A DNA stretch of 64,000 nucleotides from Tolypothrix carrinoi HA7290-LM1 (GCA_019358935.1 JAHHIK010000006.1:1-64000), one strand, 5' to 3'; shown: positions 4,936 through 41,555, counted from the stretch's first letter. Numbers and translations are program-made. The notes: generated from the letters alone by a model not told the origin.

Positions 4936-5612
4936 CCTTCCTCCCCAGCAGAGGGACATAATTCAGCCAATTGACATGCAATACAGGCAGGCGATCGCGC
5001 TTTACAAATGGCTCGACCATGATAAATTAGTCTAATTGACCAATTTTCCCAATCTGATTGTGGTAATAACTCGATCAAATCTAGCTCAATGCGAATCGGG
5101 TCTGTATGTTTAGTTAAGCCCAAACGCTGGCTGAGGCGTGTAACATGAGTATCTACCGTCACCCCAGCATTAATACCATACCCATGACCCAGCACCACAT
5201 TAGCCGTTTTCCGTGCCACACCTGGAAGCTTTAAAAGCTGTTCCATCTGGTTGGGCACTTGCGAGTTAAACTCGTTAACAATCATCCGACAAGCAGCTTG
5301 GATATTCTTCGCCTTATTGCGATAAAACCCAGTTGAACGCACCAAGTTTTCTAACTCTGTCAAATCGGCATTTGCCAAACTCGCTGCATCCGGAAATCTA
5401 CCAAATAAAGCTGGTGTTACTTTATTCACGCGCTCATCTGTACACTGAGCAGAGAGAATTGTTGCTACTAGCAACTGTACAGGCGTTGAGTAGTTCAAAG
5501 AGCAAGTCGCATCAGGATATAAAAGCTTTAGGCGCAAAAGAATTTCTTGCGCCCGTTGCTTTTTAGATAGCCTTTTGCGAGTAGTGCTTACTGGAATAAT
5601 TTTTGTACCCAC
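4932..5612 (-). CDS. nth: Endonuclease III
   Basis: LLVATILSAQCTD, HhH motif LPGVARKTANV, VDTHV, C-x6-C-x2-C-x5-C FeS motif. Start is uncertain because it overlaps the end of rseP. Confidence 0.95.
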   Translation of the reverse strand: MGTKIIPVSTTRKRLSKKQRAQEILLRLKLLYPDATCSLNYSTPVQLLVATILSAQCTDERVNKVTPALFGRFPDAASLANADLTELENLVRSTGFYRNKAKNIQAACRMIVNEFNSQVPNQMEQLLKLPGVARKTANVVLGHGYGINAGVTVDTHVTRLSQRLGLTKHTDPIRIELDLIELLPQSDWENWSIRLIYHGRAICKARSPACIACQLAELCPSAGEEG

Positions 5613-6676
5613 TCCAACTGCGTAGTTTCTTTAACTATCAGAAAAAGTCCTAAACCTAAAAGTAGCACCAAACCAGTTTGCATTACACCTTCTTGAATGC
5701 GAGATGGCAGAGGTTTACCGCGCACACCTTCAATCAGCAGGAAAGCCAGTTGTCCGCCATCCAAAGCCGGAAGAGGCAAAATATTGATAATAGCCAGGTT
5801 AATGCTGATAATTGCCGCAAATGAAAGCAAATTTGCACTGTCATCAGCAGCCAATTTTGCACCGACTTTAACAATATTAACGGGTCCCGAAACTTGTCCG
5901 GCAGTTTGTTGAAAGTTGGTAATCAACTGCCCAAAACCGCTGAGTATACGCACAACTAATTGTTGAAATCTGTTAGCCGCAATGCTAAAAATTTCCAACG
6001 GATTGCGGGGACGACGATAAATCGGTGTACCATTAGCGCCGAGTTGAATACCAATCAAACCTTTACCATCAGTTCCTCTTTCCGGCGTTAGTTTTAGGGT
6101 ACGTTGTTGATTTTCATGCTGAACTGTCAGTTCAATTGGCTGATTTGGATGATTTTGAATTTCTTTTCTCAGCAAAGTGCTGGAATTTTCCGAAGCTGGG
6201 AGTTCTTTACCACCGACAGCAAGAATAATGTCTCTTTCCCTAATTCCCGCTTGGTAGGCGATGGACTGTTCATTAACAGGCTGCACAAGTACACCAGGCT
6301 GGTAGTTGATTTTCTCCGGAATACCAACGATACCCAACTGAAGAACTAGTACTAAGTAAGCAAATATTAAATTTGCTATCACTCCGGCACTGATGACGAT
6401 CGCCCGATCTAAAATTGGACGGTTACGCAGCAGATTCGGGTCATTCGGCGGAATATCACTATCCGGGTCATCATCGGGAAAACCGACAAAGCCACCCAAA
6501 GGAAAAGCGCGGACAGCATATTCAGTTTGTGAACCTTGGTACTTAAAAATAATCGGACCAAAACCTAAAGAAAAACGGTTGGCGTAAATACCTTGAGACC
6601 GTGCTGCGATAAAATGTCCCAGCTCGTGTACCAAGATGAGAACAGCCAAGACTGCGATCGCTGCTAAAACTGGCAT
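5588..6676 (-). CDS. rseP: RIP metalloprotease RseP (site-2 protease with PDZ domain)
   Basis: HELGH, FSLGFGP, NILPLPALDGG. Confidence 0.95.
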   Translation of the reverse strand: MPVLAAIAVLAVLILVHELGHFIAARSQGIYANRFSLGFGPIIFKYQGSQTEYAVRAFPLGGFVGFPDDDPDSDIPPNDPNLLRNRPILDRAIVISAGVIANLIFAYLVLVLQLGIVGIPEKINYQPGVLVQPVNEQSIAYQAGIRERDIILAVGGKELPASENSSTLLRKEIQNHPNQPIELTVQHENQQRTLKLTPERGTDGKGLIGIQLGANGTPIYRRPRNPLEIFSIAANRFQQLVVRILSGFGQLITNFQQTAGQVSGPVNIVKVGAKLAADDSANLLSFAAIISINLAIINILPLPALDGGQLAFLLIEGVRGKPLPSRIQEGVMQTGLVLLLGLGLFLIVKETTQLEWVQKLFQ

Positions 6677-6774
6677 AGAGAAAATTAGTGAACCTATTCA
6701 GCTATATATACCTCTATTTTAAAATCTGTCAAAGTTTAGCACTTCTCAAAAGAGGCATATTTTCTCGCTTTGGG

Positions 6775-6983
6775 GGTAATGGGTAATAGGTAATTGGGCA
6801 TTGGGCATTGGGCATTGGGCATTGGGCATTGGGCATTGGGCATTGGGCATTGGGCATCGGTAATAATTCTTTTTAAGCGTCCAAGCGTCCCCATTCCCCA
6901 TTCCCCATTACCCATTCCCCATTCCCCATTCCCCATTCCCCATTCCCCATTCCCCATTCCCCATTCCCCATTCCCCATTCCCA
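6775..6983. repeat. STRR heptamer arrays (TGGGCAT)n and (CCCCATT)n
   Basis: Directly visible. Confidence 0.92.
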
Positions 6984-6986
6984 AAT

Positions 6987-8267
6987 TTACAACACCTCTC
7001 TTCCCAAAAACGGTTGCAGCGCTTTTGGTATACGCACCGTCCCATCTGGTTGTTGATAATTCTCCAAAATAGCTGCCATTGTGCGTTCCACAGCCAAACC
7101 AGAACCGTTTAAAGTATGTACGAACTGAGTTCCCTTCTTACCTGCTTCTTTGAAGCGAATATCACCCCGTCGCGCTTGGAAGTCGATACAATTGGAACAG
7201 CTAGAAATTTCTCGATACTTGCCAGATGAAGGCAGCCAAACTTCTAAATCATAAGTTTTGCAAGAAGAAAATCCCAAATCTCCAGTGCATAACTCTATAA
7301 CTCGGTAAGGTAACTGCAAAGCTTGTAAAATCGCTTCTGCATTTGCCACCAATTTTTCCAGTTCCTCAAAAGAAGTGCTGGGTTCAACAAATTTCACCAA
7401 TTCGATTTTGTTGAATTGATGCAGGCGAATCAATCCGCGCATATCTCGTCCATAACTACCAGCCTCTCGGCGAAAACACGGAGTATAAGCACAATGGTAG
7501 ATAGGCAAATCAGCCGAATCGAGAATTTCACCTCGGTAAAGATTAGTTACAGGAACTTCTGCTGTAGGTATTAACCACAAATCATCATCAGCACATTTAA
7601 AGCTTTCTTCCGCGAACTTAGGTAACTGACCTGTAGCCGTCATCGAATCAGTATTAACTAAAATTGGCGGACTAATTTCTATATAACCAGCTTGAGTCTG
7701 GCGATCGAGCATAAACTGAATTAATGCTCTTTCCAACGCTGCACCAGCTCCTATCAGCGTCACAAAGCGGCTTTGAGCCACTTTCACCGCTCGCTCTACA
7801 TTCAGAATACCCAACTTTTCGCCAATTTCCCAATGCGGGAGAATATTCGGGTTTTGAGGAATATAATCATCACCCCAACGGCGTACTTCTACATTCTCTT
7901 CCTCACTCTTACCAATGGGTGTAGAGTCGCTTGGTAAGTTAGGAAGTGCAAGTACAAGTTCTTCAATTTTGGCTTTGAGTTCTTTTTCCTGCGGTTCCAG
8001 TGAACTCAATTGCTCTTTAATAGATTTGCCCTCTTCCCGCAAAGCGAGAATTTCTGCTCCTTTGGGGTCAGAACCAGCTTTGATTTTGATTGGAATTAAA
8101 CCTGCAATTTCATTACTACGTGCTTGGAGTTGATTTCGCTTTCCCTCCAATTCTCGCTGTTGCCGATCCAACTCCGATATAGGCTGAATGTCATACTTAT
8201 TACCGCGACTATTCAACCGTTCCTGAACTAATTGGGGATTTTCCCGTATTTGCTTAATATCCAGCAC
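6987..8267 (-). CDS. serS: Serine-tRNA ligase
   Basis: [48 protein letters not shown]. Confidence 0.98.
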
Positions 8268-14377: not shown

Positions 14378-15094
14378 TGAATTCGTCCTCCCCACCAATT
14401 CTGTTTTTTTCTGTTAGTTACAAAGACAAGTCGTCAGATAAATAGTTCCAAGTATTTCCTGACTTTTCCCAATAGTTTTAGCTGGCTATAACGGTCATAA
14501 GATTGCTATTTTTTAGCCAACTTCCAGGCTATTTGCACCCAGTTAAATCAAGTTTATTTAATTGCTTTTTGAGATAGTCACGTTTAAGCATGACAAACTA
14601 CTTACTTATGAGCAGTCTGAGCAATCCTTGATATTCAGTAAGACGTGCCGTTGAAAAAATAGTTGCGGAAAAAAATAATTTTTTTTACTCTTTATTAATC
14701 TGGATTCAACCTCCGTGCAAACGTCGTAAAAGCCAATCAAATCTGGCTTTGGGAGCAATTAGATATTCAGCGGCATAAATATCATTCTTAGATTTTATGT
14801 CGCTTAACTTACTAAAATCATCCCTTAATATACTGAAATTGACAGTACAAGTGTGCGGTGAAAGTGGGAAGAAAAAGATACATCGAGTTGCAGCTTTGCG
14901 GCTAAGTTCTTCCGGGGGATAGACAATACAAGAGAGTCGCTGATAGCTTGGATAGTGGCAAAGGGTAGTTCGTTGTGCGAGAACCCCGGTTTCGTAAAAG
15001 TTACCGGGGTTCTGGGTTTGTGCTTAAATGTCATGTCCTTTTAATTAACACTATTGAACAGCTCTTGTTGGGGGTGGCTGAGTGGGTGTAGGGG

Positions 15095-15232
15095 TCAATT
15101 GGATCGGTGCAGCACCTAACCAATTGGAGACACTTATTGCGACGGTGGGGTTTTAAACCCAATTGCTCCTGGGTGTGGGATGTACAAAACATGAAAGTTT
15201 TCCCCACACCCCACACCCCACACCCCACACCC
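15095..15232. repeat. Dispersed structured repeat related to the Argonaute insertion, flanked by CCCACAC heptamers
   Basis: Minus strand GGAGCAATTGGGTTTAAAACCCCACCGTC..GTGTCTCCAATTGGTT aligns with 38866-38918. Confidence 0.7.
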
Positions 15233-15440
15233 AGGAGCGAAGCGACGATAAAAATATCGCAACCGTCGTAGAGACGTTCGGTCCGGAACGTCTCTACAAT
15301 ATATGTGATTTGTCGGACATGATATCATTCCACCAAAGACAATATATTGTCAGTGAAAAAATTAAGCGATCGCCACTTCAACATGTGTGTGCGATCGCTT
15401 ATTACAAATAATTAAAGTCACGGCTTAACTAAACTTAAGC

Positions 15441-37549: not shown

Positions 37550-38788
37550 TTATTCAGTTGTAAAATGCACGATATTTCTACTGTAGGACAAGTTATTAGC
37601 CAAAAGAGTTGTAATAGGTAAATGAGTTGGTTCAAAAATACTGATAGAGTAAGCTTTAGTAAGCCAATAAATCTCTTCTGTTAGGCTTGAAATTTTCTTA
37701 TATCCATAGACTTTTTTGATTTTGAGTGGATTAGGTACAGTTCCTGTAGTTCGCAAAGATTGATCATTTGTAATTAAATATGATATGTCATTTGCGAAGA
37801 TATAATACCCCATAAAACCATCTAAATATATAGTTTCATTATTGTAATTTGAGTAAAAACCAATTCGGGGTACTGCACTTTTGATAACTTCAACTAAATT
37901 GTATTTTGAAATTTTAACTTCATCCATTACTTTATGAAAGTATTCTAATTCCTTCTGAGTTATTAGACCATCTCTATGTATAGTAATACCATTAATATGT
38001 CTAGGTAAGTGTTTTACTATCCATTTAAATGCTCTAACTAACTCCTCATAAGAAATGACTTCATTAAATTGTAAGTTTTTCCTAGTGTAAGGTTTTTGTA
38101 GAAGGCAACCAAAGTTATCAATTACCGTTATAGTTAAATTACTCAATTTATCTGTATGATTGTGTCCTAAATCAATGCCTATAAAAATATGATCGGGATC
38201 TTGAGGATCAACATCTTTAATTTTCCAAGGAATAGCTTTATTCTTTAAACCTAATTTTAATAATGAATTAGCAATAACATTCTCATTCAAGCTATTTACT
38301 ATAACAAATGCCAAGCTATTTTTTTTAAGAGTTTCTGCCAGATGTTTATTAATTAAATCTATTTTTTCTAGCTGAATTTTGTCATTCAGTTTAACTTCCT
38401 TAGTATCAATCAAATGTAGTATGTAACTATATTGTGTATTTTCCAGTTGAGATTCTAGAGAATCTTGACTAAAATTATTATAATCAAAAACTATAACATC
38501 TGCATCATAAATGGGTGCTACAAAATTTTTATATAAAAATTTTAATCTATCATTTATATTTTTTACTATTTCTGATAATGGTTCTATTGCAAGCTGGCGG
38601 CTAGATACTACAAGTTTTAGCTCTAATTTTTCAGGCATTTTGAATACACCTGACTTATTTAAACCTTTTGGTGCTGTGTAATGCAAATCTCCATCAGCAA
38701 ATAGATACTTTCTTGTTATATGAATAATTTTATAGCGGTAATTTATCTTATTGATATCTTCAAAAAAAATAATATTAGATTGATTATC
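37550..38788 (-). CDS. ago: Prokaryotic Argonaute, C-terminal part (L2-MID-PIWI)
   Basis: PIWI motifs IFIGIDLGH, ITIHRDG, LVEVIKS, PNPL, IYWLT, HLPITTLLANNL. The frame stays open upstream of the track start (YLFADGDLHYTAPKGLNKSG, L2-like) up to the insertion. Confidence 0.9.
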   Translation of the reverse strand, partial: DNQSNIIFFEDINKINYRYKIIHITRKYLFADGDLHYTAPKGLNKSGVFKMPEKLELKLVVSSRQLAIEPLSEIVKNINDRLKFLYKNFVAPIYDADVIVFDYNNFSQDSLESQLENTQYSYILHLIDTKEVKLNDKIQLEKIDLINKHLAETLKKNSLAFVIVNSLNENVIANSLLKLGLKNKAIPWKIKDVDPQDPDHIFIGIDLGHNHTDKLSNLTITVIDNFGCLLQKPYTRKNLQFNEVISYEELVRAFKWIVKHLPRHINGITIHRDGLITQKELEYFHKVMDEVKISKYNLVEVIKSAVPRIGFYSNYNNETIYLDGFMGYYIFANDISYLITNDQSLRTTGTVPNPLKIKKVYGYKKISSLTEEIYWLTKAYSISIFEPTHLPITTLLANNLSYSRNIVHFTTE

Positions 38789-38977
38789 CGCCTTCGGCGG
38801 AAGGCAGAAGGCAGAGGGCAGAGGGCAGAAGGTATAAATTATGTCTTTGATTCAGCCTTCTGGCTGGAGCCAACTGGGTATAAAACCCCACCGTCTACAC
38901 GGTGTCTTCAATCGGTTGGGGTTTGAATCCCCATCCGATTGCTCCTTCTGCCTTCTGCCTCCTGCCCTCTGCCTTTC
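38789..38977. mobile_element. ~189-bp MITE-like hairpin element inserted in the ago gene
   Basis: GC-rich island in an AT-rich gene, with imperfect inverted ends built of GGCAGA(A/G) heptamers. Removing it joins ...KSSIE to DNQSNIIFF... in frame. A related core lies at 15095-15169. Confidence 0.8.
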
Positions 38978-39931
38978 TTCAATTGAGCTTTTTTCTAAAT
39001 CATTTATTAAGGTCATTGTATCTTGTAGATTAGTTTGCTCAAACCAAAATTTTTCTTTTGAAAATCTAAGATTCTCACACCTCTGACTAAAAGCTTCAGT
39101 TGAATCAAATGTATCAAATACATATTCAGGATCTTTTATATCCGAGACATTTTGAACTTTTCTGGATATTGGACGACCTGTTTTGATATTTACTAATCTA
39201 TGATTATTGTAATTTATAGGTTCTTTTAATCCTAATTTATTTACTGAATTGACTGTTATTGAAAAATTTGTACAACTCAAATTTATCCATATTGTGTCAT
39301 AATCCAGAAATTCAACAGAGTATTCAACTCCTTTCTTTACAATAAATCTATTGTGAACATCTGTAATTATTTTTGTGTTTAAAATTATGCTTTGACTGTT
39401 CTTAAATTCTACATTTATCTGATTGGAGAAGTTGTTTCTAAATCTATTGGACACTTTCTCAATAATCATTTGCTGGCTTATTTCAGCTTGCTTGACACCA
39501 ATAATTTTATATTTCACTGGTATTGCAGTTATAAAAGGCTTAAAGTTTGTGCTAAAAATATCATTAGTTGATTCAAGTTTATCTAAATCTATAATAGATG
39601 TTACTTCTTTATTTTCAAGTTTAAATTTTTTTAAAAATAATGTCACTAATTCTTGATTATGAATTACTCGGTATTTTTGGATAAACAATTTATATTTTGT
39701 ATGGGAAATTTTTTCAGCAATATCATGAATCAGAAAAAATATTAAGGAAACCTGATCTTGAGATATATTATTTTTACATATTAGATACTTGCATTCATAG
39801 ATTGAAAGGTTTGAATTTATCTGATTACTTAAATAAAGAGTATAATAGTCAAATTTATAAATTTTTATTAGATCTACAGATAAATTAGGCACATACACTG
39901 CTGCTGCTTGTACTTTACTGAATAAGAACAT
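38852..39931 (-). CDS. Prokaryotic Argonaute, N-terminal part (N-L1-reduced PAZ), terminating inside the insertion
   Basis: Same frame as the PIWI ORF, equally AT-rich. The last ~40 aa (RQRAGGRRQK...) are insertion-derived. L1-like segment KGVEYSVEF...IWINLS. Confidence 0.75.
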   Translation of the reverse strand: MFLFSKVQAAAVYVPNLSVDLIKIYKFDYYTLYLSNQINSNLSIYECKYLICKNNISQDQVSLIFFLIHDIAEKISHTKYKLFIQKYRVIHNQELVTLFLKKFKLENKEVTSIIDLDKLESTNDIFSTNFKPFITAIPVKYKIIGVKQAEISQQMIIEKVSNRFRNNFSNQINVEFKNSQSIILNTKIITDVHNRFIVKKGVEYSVEFLDYDTIWINLSCTNFSITVNSVNKLGLKEPINYNNHRLVNIKTGRPISRKVQNVSDIKDPEYVFDTFDSTEAFSQRCENLRFSKEKFWFEQTNLQDTMTLINDLEKSSIEERQRAGGRRQKEQSDGDSNPNRLKTPCRRWGFIPSWLQPEG

Positions 39932-40435
39932 TCTAAGTTTTACCTAAATAAGATTTTATCGACTACAGAGTGCTTGTTGATGCTCTTACTTAGTATTCCC
40001 AGCAGATGCAGATAAATCACATCTAGATATAAAAAGTTGTTATAAATAAGTTTGATGAATAATTCTTGTAGGTTGGGTATAGCAAAAGCGAAACCCAACC
40101 AATATTTTATCTGACAGACTGATACTTGATTTACAGCCAATATGTACAGTTATCCTGCTTGTCTACTAGCATTTTGTACTATTCCAAAAGACATAGATTG
40201 AAGAGATCATCACTACCCGTAAAAAAAGCGATCATTACTCACCCGTTAATATGCGATCGCCTCTTCTCTTCTTCCTCTGTGTTCTCTGCGGCTCTGCGGT
40301 TAGTTAAAAAAGGCATCGCCTGACTGCAAAATCTGTACTATGCGATCGCCCTCTTCCTCCTTTGCGCCTCTGCGCCTCTGCGTGAGATAAAAAAGCGTAG
40401 GCAAAGCCCGCCGCAGGTATTGCTAGGTTAATTTT

Positions 40436-40885
40436 CTAAATTTCTTGCCATTCTCTAGCATCAATAAAAATAGATAGATGTTTTTTATTGCTTGTGGCAA
40501 TAATAACCTCATGCCCATAATTAGCGACTAAAATAGATTGAGATGCCAAAATTACATCACCATCTAAAGCTTTATTATCTGCTGTAGATTTACCTTGATT
40601 TCTGACTTCAGCCCATAACTCTGCGGCTTTCAACATCACTTCTGTTGTAATAGGAAGATAGATAATTTCTGACTTGAGTTGATTAAGTTTTCTAATTCCT
40701 GATAATTTATTTGCCCTTAACAATTCCCGTCTAATTTCATAATCTATAATTTCTGGTAAAATTACTTCATATCCTCTCTCAAAGAGCGTATAAAACCATT
40801 CTTGACATTGCACAGCTAGAGGCGTTGCTTTTGGATTAGTAATTAATCCCACAGGTGTAGAATCTAAGATAATAACCTTACTCAT
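40436..40885 (-). CDS. PIN-domain (VapC-like) toxin
   Basis: IILDST, YEIRRE, DGDVILA, ATSNKKHL acidic PIN motifs. Confidence 0.85.
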   Translation of the reverse strand: MSKVIILDSTPVGLITNPKATPLAVQCQEWFYTLFERGYEVILPEIIDYEIRRELLRANKLSGIRKLNQLKSEIIYLPITTEVMLKAAELWAEVRNQGKSTADNKALDGDVILASQSILVANYGHEVIIATSNKKHLSIFIDAREWQEI

Positions 40886-40891
40886 CCGATT

Positions 40892-41215
40892 TTAAATAGA
40901 AATGCCTTTCATAGATTCAATAATTTCTAAAGTTGTTTGTTGTTCTTGTTGTTCATCTAACTCATTCCAGGACTCGAATAATTTTTTAATGTTTTTTTTC
41001 CTTTCTTGTTGTTTAACTGGATCGCTATGATTAATTTCATTGATAGCATTTTCCCAGTGATTTAATGATGTCTTCCTCGTCACACTTTGACGAAATAGAC
41101 GTACAAATTGCAGTAATTCTGGTAGATATTCTTCGGGAGTTTGTTCAATTTCTAATAATAAATCAGCGCGGGGTGTAGTTGATGATTGTGCTGTGATAGG
41201 TTGATTATTGTTCAT
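40892..41215 (-). CDS. Putative antitoxin
   Basis: Small acidic ORF 6 bp upstream of the PIN gene; LLLEIEQTPEEYLPELLQFVRLFR. Confidence 0.65.
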   Translation of the reverse strand: MNNNQPITAQSSTTPRADLLLEIEQTPEEYLPELLQFVRLFRQSVTRKTSLNHWENAINEINHSDPVKQQERKKNIKKLFESWNELDEQQEQQTTLEIIESMKGISI

Positions 41216-41555
41216 AAGTACCTTCAAAGTACATAGTTTAATAACACGAGTAGATATTAATTGGTTTTAGGATTGGTAGTTATATTATATTTTAGCTTGA
41301 ATGGCTATTTTAGTTTCCTAATAAAGTGCCGACGCTTGCATGGTATCGAATAGATCAAGAATCGTTTCCTGATCGAGGTAAATATTATCAATTAAGCGAT
41401 CGCCTGAAAAATCTCCACTATGCGATCGCGTAAAGCCTTCGGCATGGCTACGCTTACCGCGCAGCGTGTCCGCAGGACTCAGTGACTCGCTTCTTTTGTA
41501 TAGCCTAATCTAACTTTATCATCAAGGCGATCGCTTGCTTTTTGTTGAAAAGCGT

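Follow-up and report, generated by a model that had tools for sequence, protein, structure and literature searches.

Results

An Argonaute gene interrupted by a small element

We analysed a stretch of 64,000 nucleotides from Tolypothrix carrinoi HA7290-LM1 (GCA_019358935.1, JAHHIK010000006.1:1-64000; hereafter the window), in which a gene for a long prokaryotic Argonaute (pAgo) on the minus strand is interrupted by a 195-nt element. A preliminary description of the window had reported two Argonaute open reading frames (ORFs) in the same frame, separated by an insert with one stop codon. This reading was borne out, as the minus-strand frame from 39931 to 37550 comprises 793 codons with TGA 38854-38852 as its single internal stop, and neither half shows any further frameshift or stop. 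The insert had been given as 186-189 bp (38789 to 38974 or 38977); the insertion itself stands, but its size is 195 bp (38788-38982), with limits set by 37 genomic copies and by the uninterrupted orthologue L027. When these 195 bp are removed in silico, the halves join through an Asn codon with zero added residues, whereas the 186-189-bp version leaves two or three extra. The G+C content of the insert is 54%, compared with 27% for the gene. That the insert is a multi-copy mobile element had been overlooked. The features of the gene are as follows.

37550-39931, minus strand: interrupted long pAgo gene, 728 codons without the element (homologues, 688-776 aa)
38983-39931, minus strand: 5' part of the gene, codons 1-316, with an extra N-terminal domain, N, L1, a small PAZ-like region and the first L2 helices (putative domain labels)
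37550-38787, minus strand: 3' part of the gene, with the rest of L2, MID and PIWI; its first in-frame ATG, GTG or TTG is TTG 38686, followed by ATG 38638
38852-38854, minus strand: sole in-frame stop, TGA in 33 of the 37 copies and GGA in four, all of them 196 nt long
38636-38651, minus strand: restart proposed in the preliminary description, AGGTG plus ATG; the motif consists of Gly-Val codons and the Met is not conserved
37595-38173, minus strand: PIWI tetrad, D 38173, E 38062, D 37972 and N 37597

An assembly artefact is unlikely, given 36 sibling copies and the agreement of sequencing run X1, likely the source run, which matches the flank 38983-41300 without difference at a depth of 529. 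The X1 contig apparently extends 27 letters beyond the junction. This overrun could arise because the element is shared among its copies, if the assembly words are 31 long, as we take them to be, and one other copy shares three flank bases; since contigs lose rare variants, it does not show an excised allele to be absent. In X4, a contig of 2928 nt, about 90% alike, crosses the junction side.

Family and structure of the Argonaute

The Argonaute identity given in the preliminary description was confirmed by three lines of evidence. A profile of 30 homologues matched CpAgo, CbAgo and MpAgo at E values of 9e-23 to 3e-18, the PADLOC pAgo models matched, and the predicted fold resembled known Argonautes; Pfam Piwi gave no match for either half. 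We aligned 38 homologues, with most fragments left out. Single chains of 688-776 aa without an insert account for 35 of them, and two others are N-terminal pieces that end before the junction. Of the PIWI tetrad, D, D and N were present in all 36 rows covering them, and E was invariant in 30/30; the tetrad aligns with that of MpAgo. A further family member, P0046 (329 aa, from a Trichocoleus/Funiculus record), is a C-terminal piece that starts inside MID on a 229-kb contig.

The structure was modelled for the intact homologue P0001, which is 62% and 73% identical to the two halves (pLDDT 84, pTM 0.85); this model replaced an earlier one from 15 sequences that was poor around L2 (pLDDT 61). It presents a full N-L1-PAZ-L2-MID-PIWI chain, the window gene itself being interrupted, and aligns from about residue 130 to the whole chains of MpAgo, KmAgo, TtAgo and CbAgo. 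The best match among long Argonautes was MpAgo (5i4a_C; Z 24.1, root-mean-square deviation 4.6, 534 aligned residues), tied with several others. The first 130 or so residues (window 39540-39931, minus strand; P0001 1-130) precede the start of this alignment and form a beta-rich extra domain, for which a comparison with Atlas gave only sub-threshold leads to ArgoN/L1-like clusters (best 0.85). The tetrad D-E-D-N follows the DEDX pattern of long-A pAgos (X = D, H, K or N). Going by sequence and fold, the gene most likely encodes a long-A-like pAgo of the D-E-D-N type.

In L027, a metagenome contig in which the gene lies in the same place beside pntB, the orthologue aligns to window 39934-38983 and 38787-37551 at adjacent coordinates (5943|5944) and encodes one 725-aa protein. 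Had the split been ancestral, as the preliminary description allowed, relatives lacking the insert would also carry two ORFs; since the orthologue is contiguous across the junction and encodes a single protein, the split is not ancestral. The ratios of nonsynonymous to synonymous divergence (dN/dS) between the window gene and L027 are 0.31 for one half (310 codons) and 0.29 for the other (410 codons). Judged from these alignments, values near 0.3 in both halves reflect selection that predates the insertion.

Copies, ends and target of the element

When the insert was compared with its own genome by BLAST, 67 matches were found; 37 span the whole element, with identities of 95.9-100%. The copies are 196 nt long in 31 cases and 195 nt in six. 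In plus-strand orientation, TTAT precedes and TTCAA ends every one of the 37. The features of the Argonaute copy are listed below.

38788-38982, plus strand: non-autonomous mobile element, 195 nt, one of 37 full-length copies; the plus strand is the predicted transposed (top) strand
38784-38787, plus strand: target TTAT, outside the element, putative left cleavage site; in 37/37 copies and in L027
38978-38982, plus strand: right end TTCAA, within the element, with TCAA as putative right cleavage site; missing where sites are empty but found at the junctions of tandem copies
38801-38832, plus strand: left heptamer-repeat arm
38944-38975, plus strand: right heptamer-repeat arm, complementary to the left arm
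38839-38842, plus strand: internal TTAT; the 140-141-nt piece behind TTAT is also found alone after TTAT (contig C2) and twice in tandem (C52)
38882-38885, plus strand: AAAA, the predicted left guide, with CCCC behind it; distance to the left cut, 94 nt
38925-38928, plus strand: GAAT, the predicted right guide, with CCCC behind it; distance to the right cut, 54 nt

Flanks overlapped by 0-1 nt in 31 of the 37 copies and by 4 nt in two, and hence there is no consistent target duplication. Empty paralogous sites spanning the junction were available for six copies, the best being 98.3% identical over 120 nt and gap-free; they keep TTAT and lack TTCAA. The latter finding, together with the presence of TTCAA at tandem junctions, excludes a 192-bp insert with a two-base GA duplication at TTGATAA, as does L027, which fixes the length at 195 bp. 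The base before TTAT is never C in the 37 copies (chance about 0.003). A single base separates the Argonaute copy from its closest sibling, and the whole family comprises nine haplotypes. The element therefore spread recently, and whichever model of the locus holds, the halves flanking it should be intact.

The preliminary description had recognised inverted heptamer arrays at the insert ends and a capacity to fold as one long stem, both of which proved correct: the two 32-nt arms are 88% complementary, and the predicted RNA fold has an energy of -110 kcal/mol (z -11.2), equalled by none of 200 shuffles. A known structured RNA was considered and rejected, because the four Rfam matches (E 0.04-0.7) all lay far under the gathering scores. 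The arms are sub-terminal, the ends are asymmetric and the target is not duplicated, unlike in a classical, DDE-dependent MITE (a miniature transposable element with inverted repeats).

Head-to-tail repeats, in which a right end is joined to an internal or left end, were seen at G000:C52:32834-33311 and at about 52560-52950 of C42. Such junctions are as expected for circle intermediates. The heptamer unit of the arms differs between element families. A sibling element lies in the window itself (15054-15247, minus strand), between TTAT and TTCAA; its arms are of the GGGGTGT type, its core is related, and it has about a dozen genomic copies. The same heptamer arms as in the Argonaute copy surround unrelated cores at G000:C54:27610-27820, C22:68982-69192 and C7:99048-99299; two of these follow TTAA and end in TTCGGT.

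Guide sequences co-vary with the cut sites

IS608 of Helicobacter pylori, as described in PMC3201880 and PMC5934647, is inserted 3' of TTAC and has TCAA as its right end; its excision neither adds nor removes sequence, and its internal guides AAAG and GAAT read these sites by pairing (AAAG/TTAC and GAAT/TCAA; PMC5934647). We compared guides and sites in 39 distinct related elements, of which 14 come from the genome itself and 25 from relatives, the latter out of 41 loci chosen from the BLAST matches. The left guide fitted the target in all 27 callable elements, 12 of the 39 yielding no call; the pairs were AAAA or AAGA with TTAT (21), AAAT with TTAA (5) and AAAG with TTAC (1). The right guide fitted the end in 34 of 36 callable elements, three being without a call, with GAAT-TCAA in 31 and GAAA-TCAT, AAAA-TTAT and AAAT-TTAA in one each. 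By this comparison, the changes in guide and site amount to a handful of independent events, all but two in the predicted direction. Since the four-base guides within the element change in step with both cut sites from relative to relative, as in IS608, it is likely an IS200/IS605-type mini-element, or PATE.

An autonomous parent was looked for among the seven Y1 transposase genes of the genome, none of which has ends that align with the element, and among tnpB right ends, read for 43 of 51 matches, where none of those listed contained the element core. The core was matched in six plasmid records, with no annotation under the match. An IS605 element at about 5350-7170 of G000:C133 carries an open 134-aa tnpA, with HVH and a Tyr at the catalytic position, and a frameshifted tnpB; by eye, it shows the same TTAT, AAAA-CCCC, GAAT-CCCC and TCAA signals. 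Its tnpA is a candidate helper for the mini-element.

We considered whether the element might instead be moved by an enzyme of another kind, such as a REP-associated Y1 transposase or a recombinase, with the gene still knocked out. The long inverted arms and the distant, loop-borne guides are unlike those of IS608, no autonomous parent was found among the seven Y1 loci, and two of these Y1 genes lie among palindromic repeats and, in our reading, look REP-associated. However, the retention of TTAT outside the element, the TCAA end, the head-to-tail junctions and the guide co-variation through three states all match the IS608 rule, and we regard another mover as unlikely.

Insertions elsewhere and the preserved frame

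Seventeen of the 37 copies interrupt rebuilt ORFs of at least 150 aa. For 14 of the 16 ORFs other than the Argonaute gene there are Pfam matches, and these are to unrelated families, among them histidine kinases, a methyltransferase, Fur, HsdR_N, Nramp, UvrD and an MFS transporter. Examples of the broken genes are found at C14:1195 (a CheA-like kinase), C29:71669, C35:19224, C113:5816 and C156:13555, and they include Fur-family, HsdR_N, Nramp and UvrD-like genes. The 195-nt form holds exactly one stop in three of its six frames. Since about one copy in six keeps the frame and half of the frames hold one stop, one or two frame-keeping, one-stop cases are expected among the 17 ORF copies, and two are seen: the Argonaute gene and the 195-nt copy at C14:1195, which is in frame with one stop within a 667-aa CheA-like ORF. 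As far as these counts tell, the kept frame and single stop are the luck of the allele.

Read-through of the TGA, which would yield an Argonaute of full length with 65 additional residues inside L2, is favoured by the kept frame and the single stop, and four sibling copies have a sense codon at the stop position. However, the stop is the default base of the element family (33/37), no SelA match was found in the 99.65% complete genome, so that selenocysteine is unlikely, and a 32-bp mRNA stem would more likely invite decay. Of the readings considered here, we find this the hardest to credit.

A further reading is a programmed switch, in which regulated or selected excision and re-insertion would turn a gene against invaders on and off in some of the cells. 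An IS200/IS605 element leaves its site exactly restored on excision (PMC3201880), and in E. coli scarless excision of other elements was measured at 0.70% when TnpA was expressed (bioRxiv 2023.03.14.532601); a candidate tnpA is present, and both halves are otherwise intact. On the other hand, 16 further ORFs whose functions are unrelated carry the element too, the Argonaute gene holds 71 TTAT sites with nothing to direct re-insertion to the one occupied here, and a copy nearly identical to its siblings would be flanked by intact halves in any case. Reversible excision, raised in the preliminary description, is thus mechanistically plausible from the type of element, but nothing marks the copy at 38788-38982 as a programmed switch, which we hold to be very improbable.

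Position of the break and possible restarts

The insertion maps to model residues 312/313, after a helix (298-310) that, in the model, would form part of linker L2, and the break would fall about 30 residues past the small PAZ-like region. The P0001 model aligns to AfAgo and the short pAgos from residues 325-331 (AfAgo 8ok9_A from 327; Z 22.3, root-mean-square deviation 3.8, 361 aligned residues), which places the break about 14 residues upstream of their starts. The break had been assigned to the PAZ/L2 boundary near where natural split pAgos divide; its nearness to that division is confirmed, while the boundary gives way to a probable position inside L2.

This nearness raises the possibility of a nascent split Argonaute, whose halves would be made separately and assemble like AfAgo-N and AfAgo. 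An ATG preceded by AGGTG is present, and independent splits have been documented (PMC10954474). After the stop, TTG 38686 and ATG 38638 are the only canonical starts and correspond to model residues 347 and 363. Their products would lack 20 and 36 residues, respectively, of a segment that AfAgo and the short pAgos keep, including F and, for the ATG, the invariant G-L-x-x-x-G-V. Eleven non-canonical in-frame codons (ATH, CTG) are also found, one of them equivalent to residue 327, and such codons may conceivably be used as starts. The restart Met is present in 10 of 36 homologues. The AGGTG noted 8 nt upstream of ATG 38638 is indeed there (38651-38647), but it is probably not a selected restart signal, since it spells Gly-Val codons that are invariant in 36/36 homologues; the intact L027 also has GGTG and ATG, and the motif thus predates the insertion. 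Moreover, the relatives do not have two ORFs, the MID-PIWI chain has no start of its own at the L2 strand as the split long-B (AfAgo type) systems do, and its D-E-D-N tetrad is complete, whereas the split pAgos described in PMC10954474 are long-B or short and catalytically inactive. In another genome, G642, a C-terminal half starting at almost the same point carries four TAA stops. We consider a nascent split to be very unlikely.

Loss of the gene across the family, and its neighbours

A search of 10 genomes from the genus (completeness 54-100%) did not find the Argonaute gene. Among 388 other genomes of the family, five gave a match, of which one is cut by contig ends and four are broken in four different ways: the C-half remnant in G642 with its four stops, an internal deletion of 1.6 kb in the same place beside pntB (seen in L017 as well), one short remnant, and one copy that is interrupted by a palindromic repeat and truncated. 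Intact proteins are recorded in Nostoc sp. CCY0012 and Dolichospermum sp. UHCC 0315A, and hence the sample of 388 genomes is incomplete. Taken together, these genomes point to an Argonaute gene that is most likely patchy, dispensable and often lost.

The neighbours of the Argonaute gene are pntB and genes of the toxin-antitoxin type. A cas operon or a conserved partner gene adjoining it was found neither in the window nor in L015, L018, L027, L030 and L031, and the CRISPR-cas locus of the MpAgo group is thus missing here. Upstream of the gene, a PIN-like gene with a small partner lies at 40436-41227 (minus strand), and the orthologous place in L027 (3140-4436) holds PIN-like and MazF-like ORFs, as we read them. 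This variation beside pntB suggests a turnover hot spot. Another multi-copy small repeat lies upstream at 40260-40395, with a depth 3-12 times that of the flank in run X1. A promoter scan gave 13 sites against 15.5 expected.

Discussion

The preliminary description had called recent inactivation the simplest reading, and the multi-copy nature of the element and the unbroken orthologue support it. We propose, with high confidence, that a long-A-like pAgo was recently knocked out by an active IS200/IS605-type mini-element. The 195-nt element would have arrived recently behind TTAT by single-strand transposition of the IS200/IS605 type, thereby inactivating the gene. A Y1 (HUH) transposase supplied in trans would bind the central hairpins, guide AAAA would select TTAT and guide GAAT would select TCAA by base pairing, the heptamer arms would bring the distant ends together, and the top strand would leave as a circle to insert 3' of another TTAT. 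Ribosomes reading the interrupted gene would continue for 43 codons into the element and stop at TGA 38852, giving an N-terminal half with a 43-residue foreign tail. No working Argonaute should result, because any restart product misses conserved L2 residues; loss of function of the Argonaute is what we infer from this. In rare cells the gene might be made whole again when the element leaves without a scar, a side effect under no regulation, and such revertants are plausible from the behaviour of other elements.

Several observations weigh against this proposal or its parts. At the right end, two of the 36 calls depart from the guide rule; all five elements with TTAA belong to one subfamily, the TTAC case is single, and the search patterns fixed part of each tetranucleotide while the kin compared are not independent. 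The DNA fold prediction places both guides in the loops of hairpins, whereas in IS608 they lie 5' of a hairpin foot; downstream of GAAT-CCCC there is no GGGG to pair with it, and none of the seven Y1 genes of the genome has ends aligning with the element. As for the gene, the frame is kept by only six of the 37 copies, the Argonaute copy among them, and a mere 14 residues or so separate the break from the natural split point, pAgos having been split repeatedly during their evolution (PMC10954474). The homologue P0048, of 417 aa and located on a contig of 2320 bp, starts at the L2 helix and could be either a natural split or a contig-edge piece. Even so, the two-chain, switch and read-through readings together hold only a small share of the probability. 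It is improbable, though somewhat less so than a nascent split or a switch taken singly, that the locus represents either the first catalytically active two-chain long-A pAgo or a D-E-D-N Argonaute that is re-activated by TnpA acting in trans in some cells of the filament.

Among known elements, PATEs resemble the present one in being short and non-coding, in having no target duplication and a fixed 4-5-base target outside the element, and in homogeneous multi-copy expansion (PMC3119063, PMC4810608). The predicted guides of the present element would also pair with their sites as in PATEs, with few independent changes. PATEs, as described there, differ in lacking inverted terminal repeats and in having near-terminal palindromes; in typical members the guide lies 5' of a sub-terminal hairpin foot. 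Here the hairpins and guides are central and bracketed by the 32-nt inverted heptamer arms. On present sequence evidence, the element would work like a PATE and is filed as a variant rather than a typical member. With IS608 it shares insertion 3' of a tetranucleotide, the right end TCAA, the right guide GAAT and the left-guide complementarity rule, one relative having the exact pair AAAG/TTAC (PMC3201880, PMC5934647). It differs from IS608 in having neither tnpA nor tnpB, in its target TTAT and in guides placed in predicted loops, 94 and 54 nt from the cuts, while the cleavage sites of IS608 lie 19 and 10 nt from the hairpin feet (PMC3201880, PMC5934647). The type II MITEs of Anabaena sp. 90 are likewise small structured repeats that interrupt Nostocales ORFs (15/147); in the portion available of PMC3542288 they are assigned neither a target rule nor an enzyme, and the likeness is one of description only.

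The gene, in turn, resembles MpAgo and the RNA-guided long-A DEDN clade (DreAgo, AshAgo) in its aligned D-E-D-N and small PAZ-like region (PMC5435312, PMC12865457) and, in our reading, in lacking an evident Y/K/R/H-K-Q-K motif in MID. It differs from the MpAgo group in that no cas operon was seen and in its roughly 130 extra N-terminal residues, and it is known here from sequence and a model. Its likeness to AfAgo-N plus AfAgo lies in the position of the break. AfAgo is without PAZ, inactive and has a downstream partner gene, whereas the window gene has a complete tetrad, single-chain relatives and no fitting start codon (PMC10954474).

The broken gene itself is ordinary, as small elements often make pseudogenes in Nostocales. 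Should the two-chain or re-activation possibility be true, an insertion 14 codons before the natural split would capture the moment at which an Argonaute becomes split or is toggled. A literature search of open papers, which did not cover ISfinder, found no published account of the element layout or of the heptamer repeats. An element that follows the guide rules of IS608 with guide distances of 54-94 nt, and with arms as spacers, would show how far guided transposition stretches, and its relatives offer natural retargeting pairs. The intact relatives of the gene constitute an uncharacterised mesophilic family of D-E-D-N Argonautes with about 130 extra N-terminal residues, and are candidate programmable nucleases.

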